Origin: a virus
Taxonomy: Duplodnaviria; Heunggongvirae; Uroviricota; Caudoviricetes
Direction: 5' to 3' (one strand)
DNA length: 14,754 nucleotides
IMG/VR virus record: IMGVR_UViG_2660238499_000008
Positions 2,288 to 10,680 of this stretch are shown here, piece by piece (position 1 is the first letter of the stretch; each line of letters starts with the position of its first letter). The translations under genes and the position numbers were made by a program. Under the pieces are notes generated by a model. It worked only from the letters and a program-made list of their open reading frames with translations. It had not been told where the DNA came from and did not search any database.

Positions 2288-2491
2288 ATGAGCACAGAAA
2301 CTATTCCTACCAGCGGCTATATCCGCCGCTTTCGTTTAGCGAGCCATCTTGGCGTCCACGTCACAACAGTAGATCGCTGGGTCCGCGAGAAACGCATTCC
2401 AGCACCCGTCAAATTGGGTGAGAAGATTACCGCCTTTGATGCGGTAGAGATTAACAACTGGCTGGCAGAGCGTCGGGGAAAGGTGGCGTAA
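2288..2491 (+). CDS. alpA: AlpA-family phage transcriptional regulator (HTH)
   Basis: 67-aa ORF with good RBS (aaaggag). Sequence RFRLASHLGVHVTTVDRWVREKRIPAPVKLGEKITAFDAVEINNWLAERRG matches the AlpA / prophage CP4-57 regulator pattern (HTH followed by PxPVKLG and W-acidic C-terminus). Confidence 0.88.
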   Translation: MSTETIPTSGYIRRFRLASHLGVHVTTVDRWVREKRIPAPVKLGEKITAFDAVEINNWLAERRGKVA

Positions 2492-2928
2492 TGGGAAAGA
2501 AAAACCGCCCCGGACAGCAGGCGGCTAACAACATAGATATTCGCGGATCTGATGTTACGCCGACCACCAGCCCGGTACAAGTACCTAAGCGAACCCCAAA
2601 GAAACACCGCGCCCGCGTCTATATGCTGCGTACTGGCGTAGAGGGATGGACAGAAAACGACATTCTGCGCTACTGCCGTCTTTCATCCGGGCGTAATTAT
2701 GCGTCTGAACTGGAGCGCCAGCTTGATATTCAGCTTGAGCGTATAGACGAAAAGAACCCCGACGGGATCGGGTCACATTTACGCTATCGCTTTACCGGGC
2801 GCGGTGACGTTCTAAAAGTTATTCAGCTTGTGAACCACAACGCCACCGCTGGTGGCTATAACGGGCTTTCTAAGCAGGATATCGCGGACATTCTCAATCT
2901 ATACCCGGACAATCTCACCGCCGGCTAA
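2491..2928 (+). CDS. Hypothetical protein with basic, low-complexity N-terminus
   Basis: 145-aa ORF whose ATG overlaps the alpA stop (TAATG), suggesting translational coupling. No family recognised. Confidence 0.6.
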   Translation: MGKKNRPGQQAANNIDIRGSDVTPTTSPVQVPKRTPKKHRARVYMLRTGVEGWTENDILRYCRLSSGRNYASELERQLDIQLERIDEKNPDGIGSHLRYRFTGRGDVLKVIQLVNHNATAGGYNGLSKQDIADILNLYPDNLTAG

Positions 2929-2940
2929 CGGAGACTGAAA

Positions 2941-3774
2941 ATGAACATCGAAAAAAGCAGATTAATTTCTGAGGCCGCCCCTCATCTGAACGCCTATCAG
3001 GGCACAATTAACGGTAATGAATTTGCCGCAATTGTCCCGGTTATTCCTGGTCATATCGGTGGGCGTGAAACCAATATTGTTAGCGCAAAAGCGTTACACA
3101 AAGCGTTGGGCGTGGGAAAAGACTTCTCTACATGGATCACTGATCGCATCTCTGAATATGACTTCACCATTGGGCACGATTACTCAGTCCATAAAACAAT
3201 TTCCCCAAATCTGGGGAAAAGCCCGAATGGCGCGGCTTACAGCAAGATTAAACAGTCTGGCAGACCCGGCAAAGACTATCTGTTAAGTGTCGGAATGGCG
3301 AAAGAACTGGCAATGATCGAACGCACCGAACAGGGCCGCGCTATCCGCCGTTATTTCATCCAGTGCGAGGAAGAATTACAGCGTAGCGTGCCTGAAATCG
3401 CCGCCCGCTATCGTCGCCAGCTAAAAGCCCGTATCAGTGCCGCCAACCTGTTTAAACCGATGTGCGTAGCGCTGGAAAGCGCCCGCGCAGAACAGGGTAA
3501 ACAGACGCAGGCTCGCCACTACAGCAACGAGAGCAACATGATCGCCCGTATCGTGCTGGGTGGCATGACGGCGAAGCAGTGGGCGCAGGCAAATGGCATT
3601 ACTGGCGAACCACGGGACAGCATGAACGCAGCACAGCTTGAACACCTCGCCTATCTCGAAAGCACCAATATCACGTTAATTGATATGGGTATGGGATATG
3701 ACCTGCGTAAAGCCGAGCTAATCCGCCTCTCTCAGCGCTGGTTAGCTAAACATCTGGGGGCTAATCATGCTTAA
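2941..3774 (+). CDS. Phage antirepressor, AntA-like N-terminal domain plus KilA-C (ANT) C-terminal domain
   Basis: 277-aa ORF, RBS ggag 6-7 nt upstream. N-terminal segment (NIVSAKALHKALGVGKDFSTWITDRISEYDFTIGHDY) resembles the AntA domain. Central segment (GRPGKDYLLSVGMAKELAMIERTEQGRAIRRYFIQCEEEL) resembles the KilA-C antirepressor domain. Confidence 0.82.
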   Translation: MNIEKSRLISEAAPHLNAYQGTINGNEFAAIVPVIPGHIGGRETNIVSAKALHKALGVGKDFSTWITDRISEYDFTIGHDYSVHKTISPNLGKSPNGAAYSKIKQSGRPGKDYLLSVGMAKELAMIERTEQGRAIRRYFIQCEEELQRSVPEIAARYRRQLKARISAANLFKPMCVALESARAEQGKQTQARHYSNESNMIARIVLGGMTAKQWAQANGITGEPRDSMNAAQLEHLAYLESTNITLIDMGMGYDLRKAELIRLSQRWLAKHLGANHA

Positions 3775-3945
3775 TGCCGCCATCCAGAATAAAGCCTTTC
3801 CCCTGGCTGGCCTGATGTATGCAAATGTTAACGTCTGGAGCAAAGCAGCCCGCCGCCAGATTGCGACAAATAGCGACGTTTGGAACCTGTCAAAACCTGA
3901 CATTTGCCACCGCCAGATCTTTACAAATCTTGGTGTTTTCGGGAC

Positions 3946-4176
3946 AAGTACGCACGCGCATGAATGCGAAGCTGGCATAACAGTGCCAGCTAATGCCATC
4001 TCCTCATTTTCTCGTCGTGGTGACGAGGAGAGTTTCGAGACCAGTACGCGCACGAAGATTTATTGGGGGTCACTACGCGAGGAAGATTTTCCCATCATCA
4101 CTACACGAGGCGGGAAGATTTTTCTGACATCACCACTAGATGCAGGGAATTTATGCAACAGTACGCGCACGCGCGA
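3946..4176. repeat. Repeat-rich, probably non-coding region: three direct copies of GTACGCRCRCG and three degenerate tandem ~30-bp units (GAAGATTT...TCACTACRCGAGG)
   Basis: GTACGC(A/G)C(A/G)CG at 3948-3959, 4044-4054 and 4161-4175. Tandem ~30-bp units at about 4052-4082, 4081-4110 and 4113-4142. A GC-stem/UUCG-loop hairpin at about 4388-4407 followed by a U-rich tract. The 311-aa ORF the track draws across this region has low-complexity, non-protein-like composition. Confidence 0.5.
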
Positions 4177-4510
4177 AGGTGAGTTTCTGGAGTCCATAAA
4201 AAAGGGCTTGCCGACTATCGCCAACCCGGTTTATGGTTATAGCGCACCAGCAAAATCTGGTGTCGGGATTGGAACCCCGAACACACTAAGGGCGACACAG
4301 ACGCCGAAAGCGTCTTTTTTTGTGTCCATTCACTACGCACATCAAATCAGCGGACTTACCCGTACTGTATCAATGGTGGCGTTAGTGGGGCTACGTTCGC
4401 GTAGGCCGGTTTCCTTTGTGTCCGGTAGTTCCAACCCTGCTAACGTCACCGCCACTATTAAGATTGGAACCTTATGCGGTGACTCCTTAAACACAAAGGA
4501 GGCTGCCATA

Positions 4511-4702
4511 ATGGCTACTACCCCTACCCAAAAACCGCAATTTATCTGGATTATCGCAGCAGTTCGCCGCGATATGCCGACAATTACCGCCAAAATTCAC
4601 CATATCGCCGCAGAGACTGAGCAGGAAGCCCGCCGCATTCTGGCGCGGGATCACGTTTGCTTTTTTGCCGGACGTATTCGCACAGGGGGCGCACATGCTT
4701 AA
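4511..4702 (+). CDS. Small protein, possibly host cell-division-inhibitor Icd-like
   Basis: 63-aa reading frame (MATTPTQKPQFIWIIAAVRRD...ARRILARDHVCFFAGRI) with its own strong RBS (aggagg 8 nt before ATG at 4511), embedded at the 3' end of the long track ORF 3767-4702. The Icd-like assignment is from recalled similarity to small proteins of P4-like prophages and is not verified. Confidence 0.45.
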   Translation: MATTPTQKPQFIWIIAAVRRDMPTITAKIHHIAAETEQEARRILARDHVCFFAGRIRTGGAHA

Positions 4703-4874
4703 TTACTTCCGTGTTGCAGGATGCGCCACCGCCCGGAGCGGCGAATTAGTCGAGTTCGTTTATATCGTTGACGCCCGCAGCGCGATCAGCGCCAAAGCTG
4801 AGGCGCTAAATCAGGCCAGAAATGAACGCCTTTCCCACATCCAGATTACCCGCATTCGTGAGGTGGCGGCATGA
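4695..4874 (+). CDS. Hypothetical small protein
   Basis: 59 aa from ATG at 4695 (track shows an upstream TTG at 4665). The ATG overlaps the stop of the previous gene (ATGCTTAA); G-rich RBS upstream. Start choice uncertain. Confidence 0.4.
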   Translation: MLNYFRVAGCATARSGELVEFVYIVDARSAISAKAEALNQARNERLSHIQITRIREVAA

Positions 4875-5185
4875 GCATGTATAACGATTTAGTGTCCTGC
4901 AACTTTGATGGTTGTACACCTGATGATCTGAACGGAATTGAGAGCTGCGCCAGTGATGCCGTGGATGATTTAATGCTGGGCGTAAGTGCCATTGGTAGCC
5001 TCATGTTCTGGGCGGCTGGTAGCGATGGCTACCCGGAGGAAAGCGCTAAGGCTGATATGTACAGATTAGGCGCAATGCTGGGACATATCGGAGAAGTTGC
5101 GCGGGCGCTGAACGATAGCGCTGCAAACGCCGCATTCTTGCGCTCAATCAGTGAAAAAGAAGCCAAAGGGAGGGCGGGCAAATGA
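4871..5185 (+). CDS. Hypothetical protein
   Basis: 104-aa ORF; ATGA start/stop overlap with the upstream gene; same strand and operon context. Confidence 0.55.
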   Translation: MSMYNDLVSCNFDGCTPDDLNGIESCASDAVDDLMLGVSAIGSLMFWAAGSDGYPEESAKADMYRLGAMLGHIGEVARALNDSAANAAFLRSISEKEAKGRAGK

Positions 5186-5445
5186 ACAGAACTACCATCT
5201 ATCGCCACCCGGCAGAGCTGGAAGCCGAAGCGATGCTATCTCGCAAAGAAGCATACCCGGATGATTTTACGCTGGCAGACCGAACAGCAGAACGCATGAC
5301 CCGCGCCCGCAATGGGCTGGCTCACGTTATGACCGATTTATTACCACTCCTCGAAGTTGAGCAAGCAGCCATCGCGTATTGCTGGCTGAGTAAAGTCCTG
5401 ACGATTGTCGATATAGCCAGAATTGATGCGGAGGGCAGCGCATGA
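5182..5445 (+). CDS. Hypothetical protein
   Basis: 87-aa ORF; ATGA start/stop overlap with the upstream gene. Confidence 0.55.
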   Translation: MNRTTIYRHPAELEAEAMLSRKEAYPDDFTLADRTAERMTRARNGLAHVMTDLLPLLEVEQAAIAYCWLSKVLTIVDIARIDAEGSA

Positions 5446-6068
5446 GCAACGCACCGACCATTAAATCTGGAAATGCCGACTTATTACACGCAGAAGCCAC
5501 ACCGCACGGCGTAAACATCATGACCCGCAATGATGCCGGGATGTATGAGCATGTTGCTCTTATCAGCTACGAGAGCGCCGTGAACGGCCTTGACGCCGGA
5601 GAGTACGACGATAAGCCAGATATCGGATACGCCATTCATTTTGCCGTTGCTGATGGCGGGGCGCGTGGCTGGTTCGACTTCACCGCGCAGCATAACGTCA
5701 CTATGTGGCGCTGGCTGATTGCTGCGACGTTCATTTCTGAGATGAAGCGCGAAAACGGCACAACCACGGTAACTGAGTCTGACGGCACTTCATCGCAGGT
5801 GGCGATTTACTCCAATGGCACGGCGGGGATTGTGGTTTACCCGTTCGCGGAACGTCTGGCGATGGCTAACAACATGGAGGGCGCAATGATTGAGCGATAC
5901 GGCGTCGAACAGGGTACGGAAAAAGCCATTGTTTTTTATCAGGCCATGATCGACACGGAGCGCGGCGAGTTGACCCCGTTCGGGCGTGAAACGCTTGCTG
6001 AACTTCACAACAGCTTTATAGCTGAACTGGATGAAAACGGCTGGCCTGAAATGCCGCTGCCGCACTGA
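5442..6068 (+). CDS. Hypothetical protein
   Basis: 208-aa ORF; ATGA overlap with the upstream gene; no motif recognised. Confidence 0.6.
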   Translation: MSNAPTIKSGNADLLHAEATPHGVNIMTRNDAGMYEHVALISYESAVNGLDAGEYDDKPDIGYAIHFAVADGGARGWFDFTAQHNVTMWRWLIAATFISEMKRENGTTTVTESDGTSSQVAIYSNGTAGIVVYPFAERLAMANNMEGAMIERYGVEQGTEKAIVFYQAMIDTERGELTPFGRETLAELHNSFIAELDENGWPEMPLPH

Positions 6069-6077
6069 GGGGGCGAC

Positions 6078-6419
6078 ATGATTACTAAAAATTTCCGACT
6101 GAATGCGCTGGCGAATAAGTATGCGTCGGCACTGTATAACCACATTACCTCCACCAGCGGCGGTGACTATTTCATGGTTGATGCGGACGGCCTCGCCGTC
6201 CGTGTGGAAATCGTCAATGGAGTAAAAGGCTTTCGCAGCCTGATCGATAGCTACACACTGGCAGCCATGAAAGTGTCCTACCCGCAGTGGGAAACCGTGG
6301 GGATCGCGCTTCTTGAGCGTTGCGTCACTAAGGACGGATTAACTGACGTCGGGCGCGAGATATGGCAAAGCATGGTTAAAGACATGGGCGCGACCGTGGC
6401 AGGGGGCAACCATGCGTAA
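6078..6419 (+). CDS. Hypothetical protein
   Basis: 113-aa ORF with strong RBS (gaggggg); its stop overlaps the primase start (ATGCGTAA). Confidence 0.6.
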   Translation: MITKNFRLNALANKYASALYNHITSTSGGDYFMVDADGLAVRVEIVNGVKGFRSLIDSYTLAAMKVSYPQWETVGIALLERCVTKDGLTDVGREIWQSMVKDMGATVAGGNHA

Positions 6420-9177
6420 TATCGATCTTATCCGCGAAGTGACCAGTGCCGCCGCCGGGCGCTGGCCTTATGTGCTGGCTGGATTGTCTATCGACGTGCC
6501 TGATTCATCGCGCCGCCATTCTCCATGCCCTGCATGTGGTGGAAAAGACCGTTTCAGATTCGACGACAACGGGCGCGGTAGCTTTATCTGCAATCAGTGT
6601 GGCGCTGGTGACGGTTTAGACCTGATTAAGAAGGTGAACAACTGCGACACTACGGAGGCGGCACAGCTTGCCGCTGATGTGCTGGGTATTGATTACCGGG
6701 CAGCGCAAACCGACCCGGTGGCAGCGAGCCATAGAAGAGAGCAACTGGAAGCTGACCGCCAGCAGCGTGAGCAGGAGCGCCAGAAACAGGCAGCAGAGGA
6801 TGCAGAGCAGCGAAGGGCTACGTTTGCCCGTCTGTATGCCGGAATGCGCCAGAGTGCCACACAGGGAGAATCTGATTACCTGCAATCAAAAGGGCTGACC
6901 GGGTTTAACTATCCGGTTATGCCGGATGGTTCGTTATTGCTGGAGCTGGTGGACGAATCCGGCGCAGTGGCAGCAGCGCAAACCATTACACCGCAGGGAG
7001 AGAAGCGACTCCTGACAGGTTCAGCAAAGCGCGGGGCATATCACGCCGTAAACGCACCAGAACAGCCGCAGAGCGTATTAATTGCCGAGGGGCTGGCGAC
7101 GGCCCTGTCCGTTCACCTGATGCGCCCGGACGCGCTTACAGTGGCGGCAATTGACGCCGGGAACCTGATCCACGTTGCCGGAGTAATGCGCCGGAAACAC
7201 CCGCAGTCGCAAATTATCATTGCCGCAGATAACGACCACCAGCAGGACGAACAGGCGAACACGGGCAAAGATGCCGCAGAGAAAGCCGCCTTATCCGTGG
7301 CTGGCTGGGTGGCGCTGCCGCCGACAGACTACAAAGCCGACTGGGACGACTACCGCCAGCAAAACGGGCTGGAAGTCGCTACGGCTGCGTTTAACGATTC
7401 GATGTACCAGATTCAGGGGGAAGCCGTGAAACCGCGATTGCAAGCCATTGAGGGCGGTAAAACTGACCATCCAGAGAAAGACCCACTAAAACCCCACATT
7501 GAGAGCCGAAAAGATGGCGTTTTCTGGGTAACGCCGAAGGTGGACAAGGAAAGCGGGGAGATCATCAACGCTGAAAGCTGGTTATGTTCACCGCTGGAGG
7601 TTATCGGCACGGGACGCGACGACAAAGATCAGTATCTTATTATCTCATGGCTGGCATTTGGTGCAGGCATACCGACAACAGCGGCTATCCCGCTGGCTGA
7701 TATTGGCGAGCGTGAAGGCTGGCGCACCCTGAAAGCTGGTGGCGTCAACGTCACAACGAAAAACAGCCTACGGGCGATTCTTGCCGACTGGTTACAGCGA
7801 AGCGGCTCGCGTGAATTGTGGCGCGTTGCTCATGCTACAGGCTGGCAGTGCGGGGCATACATCATGCCGGACGGGGAAATCATCGGCACACCTGAGCGGC
7901 CTGTTTTGTTCAGCGGGCGCAGTTCAGCCGCTGCCGGGTATACCGTAGCAGGAACGTCGGAAAGCTGGCGTAACAGTGTTGCGCGGCTGGCATACGGTAA
8001 TTACGCGATGATGACAGGCATCGCCGCAGCACTGGCAGCGCCATTAATCGGGGTGGCAGATCGTGACGGATTCGGGATTCATTTTTATGAGCAATCGAGC
8101 GCCGGGAAAACAACCACGCAGAACGTGGCGAGCAGTCTATACGGCAACCCTGATGCCTTGCGCCTGACGTGGTACGGGACGGCGCTGGGGCTGATAAACG
8201 AGGCCGCCGCCCACAATGACGGGCTGATGCCACTGGATGAAGTCGGACAGGGCGCTGACCCGATAAGCGTTTCTCAGTCTGCCTATGCCCTGTTTAACGG
8301 CGTGGGGAAATTGCAGGGAGCAAAGGAAGGAGGCAACCGGGATCTGAAACGCTGGCGCACCGTGGCAATCAGCACCGGGGAAGTGGACTTAGAAACCTTC
8401 ATCGCCACCGCCGGACGCAAGACCAAAGCCGGGCAACTGGTGCGCTTGCTGAATATCCCGTTAAGTAAGGCGGTGCGCTTTCATGAACACCAGACAGGGA
8501 AAGAACACGCCGACGCGCTGAAAGATGCTTATCAGCACCATCATGGCGCTGCCGGGAGGGAGTGGATCAGATGGCTTTCAGACCACCAGCAACAGGCGAT
8601 TGATGTCGTTCGTGAGTGTGAAGCCCGCTGGCGCAGTCTAATCCCTGCCGACTATGGGGAACAGGTTCACCGTGTAGGGGCAAGATTTGCCATTCTGGAG
8701 GCCGCTTTACTGATGGGTGGCGTGGTTACTGGCTGGGATGCTCAAACGTGCCGGGATGCGATACAGCACGCCTATAACGCATGGCTAAAAGAGTTCGGCA
8801 CGGGGAACAAAGAGCACCAGCAGATCATCGAGCAGGCGGAGGCATTTTTAAATGCCTATGGCCTGAGTCGATTCGCGCCGCTGCCTTACGACCCCGCCAG
8901 CCTGCCGATTCATAATCTGGCTGGATACAGGCAGCGCGGAAATCATGACGATTCACCGATAACGTTTTACACGTTCCCCGACACTTTCGATAAGGATATT
9001 GCTAAGGGGTTTAACAGGCAGCAGGTGGCCCGCGTCCTGAAAGAATCGGGGATGCTTACCCCTTCAGCAGACGGAAAAAAATTTCAGAGGAAAAGCCCGC
9101 GCATTCAGGGGAGGCAGATTAACGTTTACGTTTTGCAATTCCTGCCGGATGGGGAGGAAAGCCAGCCAGGGCAATAA
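6412..9177 (+). CDS. Replicative primase-helicase (P4 alpha-like): N-terminal zinc ribbon, TOPRIM domain, C-terminal Walker-A/B NTPase
   Basis: 921-aa ORF. Zinc-ribbon CPACGG...FICNQCG near the N-terminus. TOPRIM-like acidic motifs (IAEGLATA; IIAADNDHQQDE). Walker A-like SSAGKTT and Walker B-like LMPLDEV in the C-terminal half. Immediately followed by an iteron array. Confidence 0.9.
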   Translation: MRNIDLIREVTSAAAGRWPYVLAGLSIDVPDSSRRHSPCPACGGKDRFRFDDNGRGSFICNQCGAGDGLDLIKKVNNCDTTEAAQLAADVLGIDYRAAQTDPVAASHRREQLEADRQQREQERQKQAAEDAEQRRATFARLYAGMRQSATQGESDYLQSKGLTGFNYPVMPDGSLLLELVDESGAVAAAQTITPQGEKRLLTGSAKRGAYHAVNAPEQPQSVLIAEGLATALSVHLMRPDALTVAAIDAGNLIHVAGVMRRKHPQSQIIIAADNDHQQDEQANTGKDAAEKAALSVAGWVALPPTDYKADWDDYRQQNGLEVATAAFNDSMYQIQGEAVKPRLQAIEGGKTDHPEKDPLKPHIESRKDGVFWVTPKVDKESGEIINAESWLCSPLEVIGTGRDDKDQYLIISWLAFGAGIPTTAAIPLADIGEREGWRTLKAGGVNVTTKNSLRAILADWLQRSGSRELWRVAHATGWQCGAYIMPDGEIIGTPERPVLFSGRSSAAAGYTVAGTSESWRNSVARLAYGNYAMMTGIAAALAAPLIGVADRDGFGIHFYEQSSAGKTTTQNVASSLYGNPDALRLTWYGTALGLINEAAAHNDGLMPLDEVGQGADPISVSQSAYALFNGVGKLQGAKEGGNRDLKRWRTVAISTGEVDLETFIATAGRKTKAGQLVRLLNIPLSKAVRFHEHQTGKEHADALKDAYQHHHGAAGREWIRWLSDHQQQAIDVVRECEARWRSLIPADYGEQVHRVGARFAILEAALLMGGVVTGWDAQTCRDAIQHAYNAWLKEFGTGNKEHQQIIEQAEAFLNAYGLSRFAPLPYDPASLPIHNLAGYRQRGNHDDSPITFYTFPDTFDKDIAKGFNRQQVARVLKESGMLTPSADGKKFQRKSPRIQGRQINVYVLQFLPDGEESQPGQ

Positions 9178-9566: not shown

Positions 9567-10028
9567 ATGACAGCACAGATATCAGCCTACGGGCGTTTAG
9601 TCGCAGACCCCCAGACCCGCACCACAACGAACGGTGCAAGCATGGCAATGGGACGGTTAGCGGTGGCACTGCCCTGCCATGCAGCAGAGGGCGGAGAGGT
9701 TACTTTCTGGCTGGGCGTGGTGGCATTCGGCAAACAGGCCGACGCACTGGCAGGACACGTTAAAGGCGATTTAGTCAGTGTTGCCGGAGCGATGCAGATC
9801 AATCAGTGGACGGGCAAGGATGGCGGTACACAGCAAGGTTATCAGGTAGTGGCCGACAGCGTGATCAGCGCCAGAACGGTACGCCCCGGCGGGAAGCGGG
9901 CCGAATCAGTCAAAGCAAGCGGAGCCAGCAGGGGCCACACAACACAATCCGCGCCGGGATGGGAGTTATATAATACCCCTGATGATTTTGACCAACGCCC
10001 ACCATTCGACGATGAAACGCCATTCTGA
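9567..10028 (+). CDS. ssb: Single-stranded DNA-binding protein (SSB), OB-fold with acidic C-terminal tail
   Basis: 153-aa ORF. N-terminal half aligns by eye with bacterial SSB OB-fold (GRLVADPQTRTTTNG; WLGVVAFGKQADALAGHVKGDLVSVAGAMQINQWT). Gly/Ser-rich linker and C-terminal ...FDDETPF resembling the SSB D-D-D-I-P-F tail. Confidence 0.88.
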   Translation: MTAQISAYGRLVADPQTRTTTNGASMAMGRLAVALPCHAAEGGEVTFWLGVVAFGKQADALAGHVKGDLVSVAGAMQINQWTGKDGGTQQGYQVVADSVISARTVRPGGKRAESVKASGASRGHTTQSAPGWELYNTPDDFDQRPPFDDETPF

Positions 10029-10038
10029 GAGGGAAGAT

Positions 10039-10680
10039 ATGAGTACACAACCCACCATTATCGAGTTAGGCAGCTATCGCTGGCCCAGACATCTCGCAAT
10101 ACACGAAGCAGGTCATGCGATAGCCGCATGGTTTTTCGGCATACAGGAGGTAGAAATTGCGTTATCGGGTAATAACCGAGTGGCAAAAACCTACCTTAGC
10201 GGCGATGTTGATGAGTGTGGAGCCGTCGCGGTATGGCACGCCAACTATCCACGGAATGTGGCTGAGGTTAAGTCTTACACCCTCTCGAACGATGACGCCA
10301 GATTACGTCTGATAGACCAGGTATGCCGGGATATGGTTATCTCTCTGGCTGGTATCGTCGCGCAATCACGCTATACGGGGGATGATATTAACGCACTGAT
10401 GGAAACGTCCGGGAAAGCAGACATGAAAAATGTTCGTGATTTATCAGAGGTATACCGGGTGGCTGGTGGAGAGGATGCTGATATACAGAGAATATCACTT
10501 TCCCGTGCTGAGGCGCTGATTGCCCTGAAATGGTGGGATGTTATCGCGCTGGCGAAAATACTGGAGAACCGTAACCATATGCCTGCCAGAAACTTCCAGC
10601 GCATTATGGGTGATATTGACAAGCCTGTACCAAAGCCTATGACGCTGGCTGAACTGGATGAATTGGTGGGTGAAGAATGA
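10039..10680 (+). CDS. Putative zinc metallopeptidase (HExxH motif; ImmA/IrrE-like or FtsH-like HEAGH)
   Basis: 213-aa ORF from ATG at 10039 (RBS gagggaag). Motif LAIHEAGHAIAAW encoded at about 10093-10131 (HEAGH at 10102-10116). Family not resolved and third metal ligand not identified. Confidence 0.55.
   Translation: MSTQPTIIELGSYRWPRHLAIHEAGHAIAAWFFGIQEVEIALSGNNRVAKTYLSGDVDECGAVAVWHANYPRNVAEVKSYTLSNDDARLRLIDQVCRDMVISLAGIVAQSRYTGDDINALMETSGKADMKNVRDLSEVYRVAGGEDADIQRISLSRAEALIALKWWDVIALAKILENRNHMPARNFQRIMGDIDKPVPKPMTLAELDELVGEE

Follow-up and report, generated by a model that had tools for sequence, protein, structure and literature searches.

What are the six small to medium open reading frames (ORFs) that run one into the next up to the primase gene of a satellite-like viral sequence, and what decides when they are expressed? 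The sequence in question is the 14,754-nucleotide Caudoviricetes record IMGVR_UViG_2660238499_000008 of IMG/VR (all of it referred to here as the window), and the ORFs, which we call O1 to O6, occupy positions 4511-6419, directly ahead of a gene for a P4-alpha-type primase-helicase. Analysis of the window together with related loci indicated that O1 is preceded by two RNA genes, an isrK-like leader and a C4 antisense immunity RNA, and that C4 is predicted to pair with the ribosome-binding site of O1. The reading we favor, to which we give a probability of about 0.72, is that the six ORFs form the translated body of an RNA-gated early (replication) operon of a satellite resembling a phage-inducible chromosomal island (PICI), with O2 to O6 as swappable cargo. 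The features on which this reading turns are the following (lengths of proteins in amino acids, aa).

3767-4702, plus strand: Eta-like long open frame of 311 codons, spanning isrK and C4 and ending as O1
4231-4320, plus strand: isrK/seqA-like leader RNA (Rfam isrK match at 4244-4320, 76 bits, cut-off 50)
4231-4283: a1/b1 mimic of the C4 target, overlapping the 5' end of isrK
4299-4320: intrinsic-terminator hairpin and U-run within isrK, from the terminator scan
4369-4456, plus strand: C4 (P4-CI-type) antisense immunity RNA (Rfam RF01695, 81.3 bits, cut-off 45)
4464-4470, plus strand: a2 target, TTGGAAC, complementary to the a' segment of C4
4491-4502, plus strand: b2 target, ACACAAAGGAGG, complementary to the b' loop of C4
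4511-4702, plus strand: O1, 63 aa, Kil/Icd-like
4695-4874, plus strand: O2, 59 aa, basic (pI 9.2), no known family
4871-5185, plus strand: O3, 104 aa, acidic (pI 4.3), helical
5182-5445, plus strand: O4, 87 aa, acidic
5442-6068, plus strand: O5, 208 aa, very acidic (net charge -18)
6078-6419, plus strand: O6, 113 aa, its stop codon overlapping the primase ATG
6412-9177, plus strand: P4-alpha-type primase-helicase, 921 aa (Pfam Zn_Ribbon_Prim, Toprim_3 and DUF927; phrog_1139, 3e-176)

Related loci were drawn from complete Escherichia coli genomes, from contigs carrying diverged homologues of O3, and from one genome per species across the Enterobacterales, giving a survey set of 28 Enterobacterales loci that fall into 13 clusters at ~85% identity (individual loci are given as L numbers). 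The isrK and C4 RNAs were detected in every related locus tested. The stems of C4 itself show compensatory changes in 9 of 17, 5 of 5 and 1 of 5 base pairs among 25 distinct sequences. Two segments of the RNA are of particular concern here, namely b', the 12-nt loop of the second hairpin (TTTCCTTTGTGT at 4410-4421), and a', the single-stranded GTTCCAA at 4428-4434. The target of b', the b2 site, includes the Shine-Dalgarno sequence of O1 (GGAGG at 4498-4502), which lies 8 nt ahead of the ATG at 4511. The upstream mimic matches the Rfam c4-a1b1 family (RF03163) with 43.5 bits (E=4.7e-9), just under the cut-off of 46.7, and above that cut-off in three related loci (L003, L005 and L009).

We assessed pairing between C4 and its targets in two ways, from predicted duplex energies over 18 distinct types and from counts over fixed pairs of alignment columns. 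The b'-b2 duplex energy is -13.9 kcal/mol for cognate combinations as against -5.5 kcal/mol for non-cognate ones (permutation p at most 5e-5), and the element's own b2 target ranks first in 17 of the 18 types; for a'-a2 the corresponding energies are -9.8 and -4.5 kcal/mol. With the columns fixed, 95% of the structure cells in the 28 loci are paired, compared with 38-49% when the partners are slid by 1-3 columns, and changes on both sides are seen at 8 of the 12 b'-b2 pairs and 6 of the 7 a'-a2 pairs. Three-way co-variation among the upstream a1b1 mimic, C4 and the a2b2 targets is visible in the alignments. These comparisons argue strongly that the C4 loop pairs with the ribosome-binding site of O1, by a predicted pairing that co-varies across lineages, from which it follows that each lineage would have its own immunity specificity.

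The surroundings of the C4 targets were examined for transcription signals with consensus scans for promoters and terminators. The terminator within isrK is the sole terminator-like site found, and no intrinsic terminator follows isrK; inside 4511-6419 the scans gave no promoter-like or terminator-like site, and no Rfam family matched there. GC skew is at its most negative (-0.2 to -0.37 in 80-nt windows) over 4460-4640, a stretch that takes in the C4 targets and the 5' half of O1, and a Rho-utilization site would be expected in this C-rich stretch, as at the P4 timm terminator. At 4208-4237, a weak sigma-70-like pair of hexamers (TTGCCG, an 18-nt spacer and TATGGT; 8 of 12 matches, below the scan threshold) was seen by eye. 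The pair ends some 7 nt before the isrK match and may be a constitutive promoter like P4 PLE.

O1 itself belongs with the proteins that such RNAs control. Its residues 11-58 span the whole of the 48-position NCBIfam model NF033153 (phage_ICD_like; E=1e-20, 73.5 bits, cut-off 25), and it is 41% identical over 58 aa to P4 Kil, taken as the last 65 aa of the P4 'cI' ORF (E=1e-5), and 33% identical to Icd of the P1-like phage D6 (E=8e-6). Its position is likewise that of Icd and Kil, as O1 comes first after C4, has its ribosome-binding site within the antisense target and overlaps O2 by 8 nt; an Icd-like ORF of the O1 type is present in all 28 loci. A tblastn search with O1 against phage genomes gave no match, O1 being too short and too diverged for this search, and the link to the P1-type Icd was for this reason made through phage D6, which is 72% identical to the window in nucleotide sequence from isrK through C4 to the start of icd. 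D6 has the same isrK-C4-icd layout, and its icd gene runs by an ATGA overlap into an antirepressor gene. We conclude from these matches that O1 is homologous to both P4 Kil and P1 Icd.

The RNA genes lie within an open frame. The Eta-like frame begins with an ATG overlapped by the stop of an upstream AntA-family gene (overlap ATGCTTAA at 3767-3774), passes through isrK, C4 and the C4 targets, and ends as O1. Over the 270 nt that precede O1, every one of the 28 loci has exactly one stop-free frame, and the other frames average 3.3 stops; at six loci the open frame differs from that of O1 and stays open through all of O1, ending at or past the O1 stop codon. In the 159 codons of the Eta-like frame upstream of isrK, aligned over at least 40 residues, the ratio of nonsynonymous to synonymous substitution rates (dN/dS) is mostly 0.7-1.05 (range 0.55-1.14) and insertions and deletions keep the frame; this stretch has no Pfam or PHROG match. 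The frame is thus kept open while its residues change almost neutrally, and it therefore seems to be its openness, rather than its product, that is selected, presumably for the transit of ribosomes. Pfam PF10554 (Phage_ASH) maps to residues 157-256 of the Eta-like frame, which correspond to nucleotides ~4235-4534, i.e. to the stretch of isrK, C4 and the targets, and PGAP names such as 'ash family protein' and long 'Icd-like' protein thereby coincide with RNA genes. We considered that these long coding sequences might be pure artifacts of translated RNA genes and withdrew this proposal, a stop-free frame being present in 28 of 28 loci. At one locus (L002), the annotated long coding sequence is out of frame with O1. 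Between the AntA stop codon and isrK we note three tandem direct repeats of ~30 nt at 4053-4144 (GGAAGATTTT...ATCACTAC) and three copies of TTTCGnGACnAGTACGCGCACG at 3937, 4033 and 4150. The repeats at 3937-4171 could be binding sites for a regulator or the source of the in-frame insertions and deletions of the Eta-like frame. Related loci have in the AntA-isrK stretch an ORF with a DUF4222 domain that the window lacks.

Downstream of the RNA genes, the junctions at 4511-6419 are ATGA or ATGCNTAA overlaps together with one 9-nt gap. O1 overlaps O2 in ATGCTTAA at 4695-4702, ATGA overlaps follow at 4871, 5182 and 5442, the 9-nt spacer between O5 and O6 contains GAGGGGG, and the stop codon of O6 overlaps the primase start in ATGCGTAA at 6412-6419; a G-rich Shine-Dalgarno sequence precedes every start codon from O1 to O6. 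The 8-nt junction ATGC(T/G)TAA is used three times in the window, between AntA and the Eta-like frame, O1 and O2, and O6 and the primase, and each time the upstream protein ends in HA. From the Icd-like ORF to the primase, 110 of the 134 junctions in the 28 loci (82%) overlap, 72 of them by 4 nt and 32 by 8 nt, the latter being the second commonest type of junction; of the other 24, 22 leave 7-16 nt between the ORFs and 2 leave more than 20 nt. Overlaps of this frequency exceed chance. The initial annotation of this DNA, made from the sequence alone, had listed start/stop overlaps at 4695-4702, 4871, 5182, 5442 and 6412-6419 and had proposed a tightly coupled operon leading into the primase-helicase; all five overlaps are in the sequence, and the survey bears out the coupling. 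Its view of the extent of the operon stands in part, in that the six ORFs are indeed coupled, but the operon does not start at 4511, as isrK, C4 and the AntA-coupled frame at 3767-4702 had been missed.

That the six small genes are real is borne out by their substitution patterns. By the Nei-Gojobori method, with pooled values taken at intermediate divergence, dN/dS is 0.10-0.24 for O1 (pooled 0.19), 0.11-0.12 for O2 (pooled 0.11), 0.33-0.38 at depth for O3 (pooled 0.33), 0.2-0.4 for O4 (pooled 0.24), 0.18-0.24 for O5 (pooled 0.23) and 0.14-0.27 for O6 (pooled 0.27). These ratios show that all six encode proteins and are held by purifying selection. Among close relatives, O3 shows 37 nonsynonymous and 6 synonymous differences, in pairs that are few and not independent, with the variation mostly in the N-terminal third of the protein (residues ~8-33). 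O3 may be under diversifying selection, a possibility we treat just as a lead because of the small number and non-independence of these pairs.

The layout of an Icd-like ORF, one to seven small ORFs and a primase recurs in all 28 loci, and the ORFs in the middle come and go. Clustering into families gives the order O1 - [O2 | f2] - [O3] - O4 - [f0 | f1] - O5 - [O6] - [f3] - primase, in which the f families are further small ORFs and O2 alternates with f2 in its slot. O4 and O5, each in 20 of the 28 loci, are the most widespread accessory families, followed by O6 in 14 and by O2 and O3 in 7 each. Minimal elements (L029, L030 and L032) have a single ORF of ~70 aa between the Icd-like ORF and the primase. 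Within E. coli, the ends of similarity coincide with gene boundaries. O2 to O6 are thus a swappable cassette with conserved gene order. A module at 95% identity comprising isrK, C4 and O1 to O6 lies in E. coli PE15 (NZ_CP041628.1; L001) inside a capsid-forming PICI that adjoins yhdJ and carries genes for capsid, protease, portal, connector, HNH, TerS and TerL. Its presence in an island of this kind, near yhdJ, shows that the early module is exchanged between satellite types and integration sites.

Searches of O1 to O6 against Pfam, NCBIfam, PHROGs and PADLOC gave no match with an assigned function for O2 to O6. O3, O5 and O6 match solely PHROGs of unknown function (O3 matches phrog_6805, 2e-13), O2 and O4 have no family match in Pfam, NCBIfam or PHROGs, and the PADLOC-DB defense models have no match at E of at most 0.01 for O1 to O6 or for four downstream ORFs. 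Searches of PDB sequences with O3, O5 and O6, as single sequences and as family profiles, gave nothing below E=0.05. O3 has 67 homologues in E. coli and Klebsiella, of which the full-length ones are 101-105 aa long and 49-97% identical, and tblastn searches of phage genomes with O3 and O4 returned nothing. Long forms of O4 (167-171 aa; L018 and L028) were considered as fusions with O3, but the extension is unrelated to O3. The family of O5 stands alone and is small (124 cluster representatives in a set of 1.84 billion proteins), and it has members in the early-left operons of the temperate phages phiP27, phi467 and CharmingMan and of several Stx and Klebsiella phages; in phages phi467 and EKP1 a homologue of O6 stands beside that of O5. 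The structure models of O5 and O6 are confident and have no relatives in PDB, nor, for O5, in BFVD. O6 and the C-terminal domain of O5 are probably paralogous, and the domain that the two would share is probably one not seen before.

Several names carried by these proteins in public records, 'ubiquinol-cytochrome C reductase' for O3, 'nicotinic acetylcholine receptor subunit beta' for O4 and '2-polyprenylphenol hydroxylase related flavodoxin oxidoreductase' for O5 (at L001, L004 and L009; protein clusters P0088, P0121 and P0187), have no backing from Pfam, NCBIfam or PHROGs and are probably spurious. We also looked for counterparts of the P4 proteins that occupy the corresponding position. When P4 epsilon, orf151 and orf106 were compared by blastp with all cassette proteins, none was among the best 25 matches, all of which were between Kil and O1 (E up to 2e-5), so no cassette protein is taken as a homologue of P4 epsilon; homology of O6 to orf106 and of O5 to orf151 was rejected with hhalign probabilities below 1%. 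The initial annotation had tentatively called one ORF Icd-like, which the NF033153 match to O1 upholds, and had found no nameable motif in the other five, in agreement with the library searches. It had further named loss of the frames in related elements, by frameshift or lack of purifying selection, as what would tell against it; the frames are conserved as ORFs with pooled dN/dS of 0.11-0.33.

The operon sits in a compact element whose remaining features, in order along the window, are these.

1-1260: tyrosine integrase gene
1269-1334: int-alpA RNA motif (Rfam RF02996, 61.8 bits), directly after the integrase stop codon
between the int-alpA motif and the AlpA-like gene, plus strand: ORF of 277 aa
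2288-2491, plus strand: AlpA-like regulator/excisionase gene (Pfam Phage_AlpA and HTH_17; phrog_66)
2491-2928, plus strand: ORF145, 145 aa, joined to the AlpA-like gene by an ATGA overlap
2941-3774, plus strand: AntA-family antirepressor-like gene (Pfam AntA, 2.1e-21; PHROG anti-repressor Ant)
13918 to the end of the window: chromosomal dinD

The int-alpA motif was found in 7 of 7 related satellite loci scanned. The AlpA-like gene heads an upstream coupled chain that continues with ORF145 and AntA, the primase is the final gene of the coupled chain, and a gene for a single-stranded DNA-binding protein (SSB) comes after it. An ORF of 232 aa at 9982-10680, which overlaps the end of the SSB gene and probably starts at a later ATG, contains a metalloprotease-like HEAGH motif; it has no Pfam, PHROG or PADLOC match, and its counterpart in one related locus (L004) is labeled 'peptidase M41 family protein'. 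No structural, capsid or packaging module was recognized in any ORF of the window with Pfam or PHROGs. The core of a Gram-negative PICI is present, namely int, alpA and a primase within ~14 kb with no phage structural or lysis genes, and the sid, delta and psu families that define a P4-like satellite in the strict sense are absent from the ORFs of the window (Pfam, PHROGs). The closest relatives are inserted between yicC and dinD. Among complete E. coli genomes, the best match extends over 74% of the window with 96% identity, and ~10% of these genomes hold parts of the region; the exact mosaic of the window was not found in any of them. Relatives in other species number 20 loci in at least 10 genera. 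The suggestion that the element is a satellite thus fits its gene content (integrase, AlpA-like gene, AntA, P4-type primase and SSB, without structural genes) and its place beside dinD. Taken together, these features make the element a PICI-like satellite with an early operon of the known type of the P4 left operon and the P1 immI region.

How such an operon might work is suggested by P4, P1 and Gifsy-1. In P4, kil makes up the end of the longer ORF eta and is translated only on read-through of an immunity-controlled terminator, whereas full-length eta is translated from the upstream late promoter, in coupling with the alpA homologue, and termination is prevented when eta is translated (PMC10111431). 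In P1 and P7 immI the c4 RNA blocks a ribosome-binding site, and in Gifsy-1 IsrK, orf45 and anrP are linked by translational coupling (PMC12197685). By analogy, C4 in the resident state would mask the ribosome-binding site of O1, the untranslated, C-rich start of O1 would be exposed to Rho, and transcription would halt before O2 to O6 and the primase gene. O1, where translation of the short transcript begins, would be the gate for all downstream genes, and masking by C4 together with the Rho stop would mean that coupling places a toxic protein, accessory cargo and replication under one RNA switch. Transcription from farther upstream, through the AlpA-ORF145-AntA chain, would instead let ribosomes enter the Eta-like frame and cross isrK, C4 and O1, and with such read-through expression would no longer respond to immunity, as is the case for P4 eta. 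We infer Rho-dependent polarity and the two modes of transcription from these parallels. O2 to O6 would on this model be exchangeable proteins directed at the helper or the host and would stand outside the replication machinery. A more far-reaching version, in which O2 to O6 are a cassette of specificity proteins that recognize or neutralize particular helper or host factors, or that set off abortive infection as at the ECOR61 locus discussed below, with O3 under diversifying selection, and in which the Eta-like frame is purely a track for ribosomes, we put forward tentatively, as a possibility that falls well short of even odds.

We favor accessory proteins acting on the helper or the host as the probable identity of O2 to O6, with a role as replication accessories in second place and defense compatible with either, because their slot is that of the helper-derepression gene of P4 and because a locus of similar organization arrests growth. 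The latter, in E. coli ECOR61, consists of an Icd-like gene, small ORFs with overlaps of 8 nt and 1-2 nt, and a primase gene, with six linked genes needed; growth arrest triggered by a phage protein is suppressed when Tn5 inserts into the Icd-like gene or either of the two small ORFs that follow it, and a P4 prophage responds similarly to P22 Abc1 (bioRxiv 10.1101/2023.04.06.535777). For the helper-interference or host-takeover roles suggested in the initial annotation, the evidence likewise consists of these two parallels, with P4 epsilon by position and with ECOR61 by phenotype. A reading of the whole operon as a device for abortive infection or superinfection exclusion, in which O2 to O6 sense a phage protein and release toxic O1 or runaway replication so that the cell dies, would draw on this same locus, where the growth arrest follows expression of an accessory protein of the T7 group, and on the excess of nonsynonymous changes in O3 (37:6), as in an arms-race protein. 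The likeness to ECOR61 is one of published layout and description rather than of sequence, and the small ORFs there (~61 and ~63 aa) suggest a cassette unlike that of the window; moreover, the Tn5 insertions may be polar or may lie within RNA genes, PADLOC gave no matches, and any Kil/Icd operon is expected to be toxic on derepression, which need not be its selected function. For these reasons we think it doubtful that defense is what the operon is for.

We hold it to be somewhat less probable still that O2 to O6, or O5 and O6 at the least, serve as accessories to replication, for example as helicase loader, origin-recognition factor or primase partner, coupled to the primase so as to be made in fixed proportions. 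The ORFs share a transcript with the primase gene and are translationally coupled to it, the ATG of the primase overlaps the stop codon of O6 here and in 14 of the 28 loci, O4 and O5 are each in 20 loci, and SSB follows the primase, all of which would suit such a role. But homologues of O5 and O6 occur together in the early-left operons of phi467 and EKP1, with no P4-type primase annotated in the stretches shown, and homologues of O5 alone stand in phiP27, Stx and Klebsiella phages beside antirepressor, excisionase and integrase genes, with no primase annotated there. Closely similar primases, conversely, are found in elements without O5 (L005) or without O6 (L009, L017 and L022), and the minimal elements keep a single 70-aa ORF alone. 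No DNA-binding or ATPase fold was detected, and P4 alpha is not known to require a phage-encoded partner. The remaining alternative is that the small frames are not all genes, and that O2 and O3 in particular are chance open frames held by the coding constraints of their neighbors. Both are without a Pfam or NCBIfam family and are in 7 of the 28 loci, and dN/dS of O3 exceeds 1 among close relatives; against diverged copies, though, the ratio falls to 0.11-0.12 for O2 and 0.33-0.38 for O3, O3 has its 67 homologues, there are PHROG matches, and a Shine-Dalgarno sequence stands before each start codon. The near-neutral values of the Eta-like N-terminal stretch (mostly 0.7-1.05) show in addition that the method detects frames that are not under selection. 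We regard chance frames as very improbable indeed.

If the six ORFs are the body of an RNA-gated early operon, as we favor, a widespread group of islands in the Enterobacterales falls under the RNA-immunity logic of P4 and P1. The unbroken chain of overlaps would also find an explanation, as a single antisense RNA acting at a single ribosome-binding site could silence toxin, cargo and replication together. Annotation is corrected in that two RNA genes lie beneath the annotated 'Ash family' and long 'Icd-like' proteins, and the transposon data from ECOR61 can be reread, as insertions assigned to an 'N-terminal extension' may hit an RNA switch and not a protein. The Eta-like frame, if it is what it seems, would be a plain example of a sequence selected for being translatable rather than for a protein, and the shared domain of O5 and O6, if truly shared, would be one without a detected relative in PDB (for O5, also in BFVD). 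The five small families O2 to O6, two of them with confident and unmatched structure models, are candidates for factors that act between satellite and helper or between satellite and host.

Among known systems, the closest in overall plan is P4, whose left operon runs from vis/AlpA through the cI/kil ORF, epsilon (overlap of 8 nt), orf151 (overlap of 8 nt) and orf106 to alpha, its immunity part having the order seqA - cI RNA - seqC - kil, with kil nested in eta. The window likewise has an AlpA/Vis-like gene upstream, an immunity RNA inside a long open frame with targets on both sides, a Kil of 63-65 aa at the end of that frame with an 8-nt overlap to the next gene, small ORFs, and an alpha-type primase last. 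It differs in that P4 has sid, delta, psu, epsilon, orf151 and orf106, of which the window has no homologues, whereas the window has an AntA gene upstream of the RNA genes, five unrelated genes in the slot that in P4 holds epsilon (helper derepression), orf151 and orf106, and a primase with a DUF927 helicase module; its RNA, unlike that of P4, fits the C4 model of P1 type, in which the a and b sites are separate. P1, P7 and D6 share with the window, in their immI region (a1b1 - c4 - a2b2 - icd - ant), the C4 fold, a b2 site that covers the ribosome-binding site of the Icd ORF, and the overlap of Icd with the next gene, and co-varying a and b sites define heteroimmune types in the manner of P1 and P7. 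In P1 and D6 it is the antirepressor gene that is gated, whereas in the window the antirepressor-like gene lies upstream and what is gated would be the accessory cassette and the primase. Gifsy-1 isrK-orf45-anrP resembles the window in having an isrK-family leader RNA and in tying downstream expression to translation of a short first ORF, but the short IsrK RNA of Gifsy-1 activates translation, whereas the window has a C4 repressor between isrK and the first ORF and other genes downstream. With the Gram-negative PICIs and capsid-forming PICIs (EcCICFT073, EcCIMP1), to which the C4 and isrK profiles have been reported to match (PMC10111431), the window shares the order int - alpA - (antirepressor) - primase, a length of ~14 kb and the lack of lysis and tail genes, and elements like EcCIMP1 conserve an antirepressor, an 'Ash family protein' and a primase; in contrast to the capsid-forming kind, the window has no recognizable packaging or capsid module. 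The ECOR61 locus, compared by description, shares the Icd-like gene, the overlapping small ORFs and the primase, and its 'N-terminal extension' was described with isrK and C4 RNAs left out of account.

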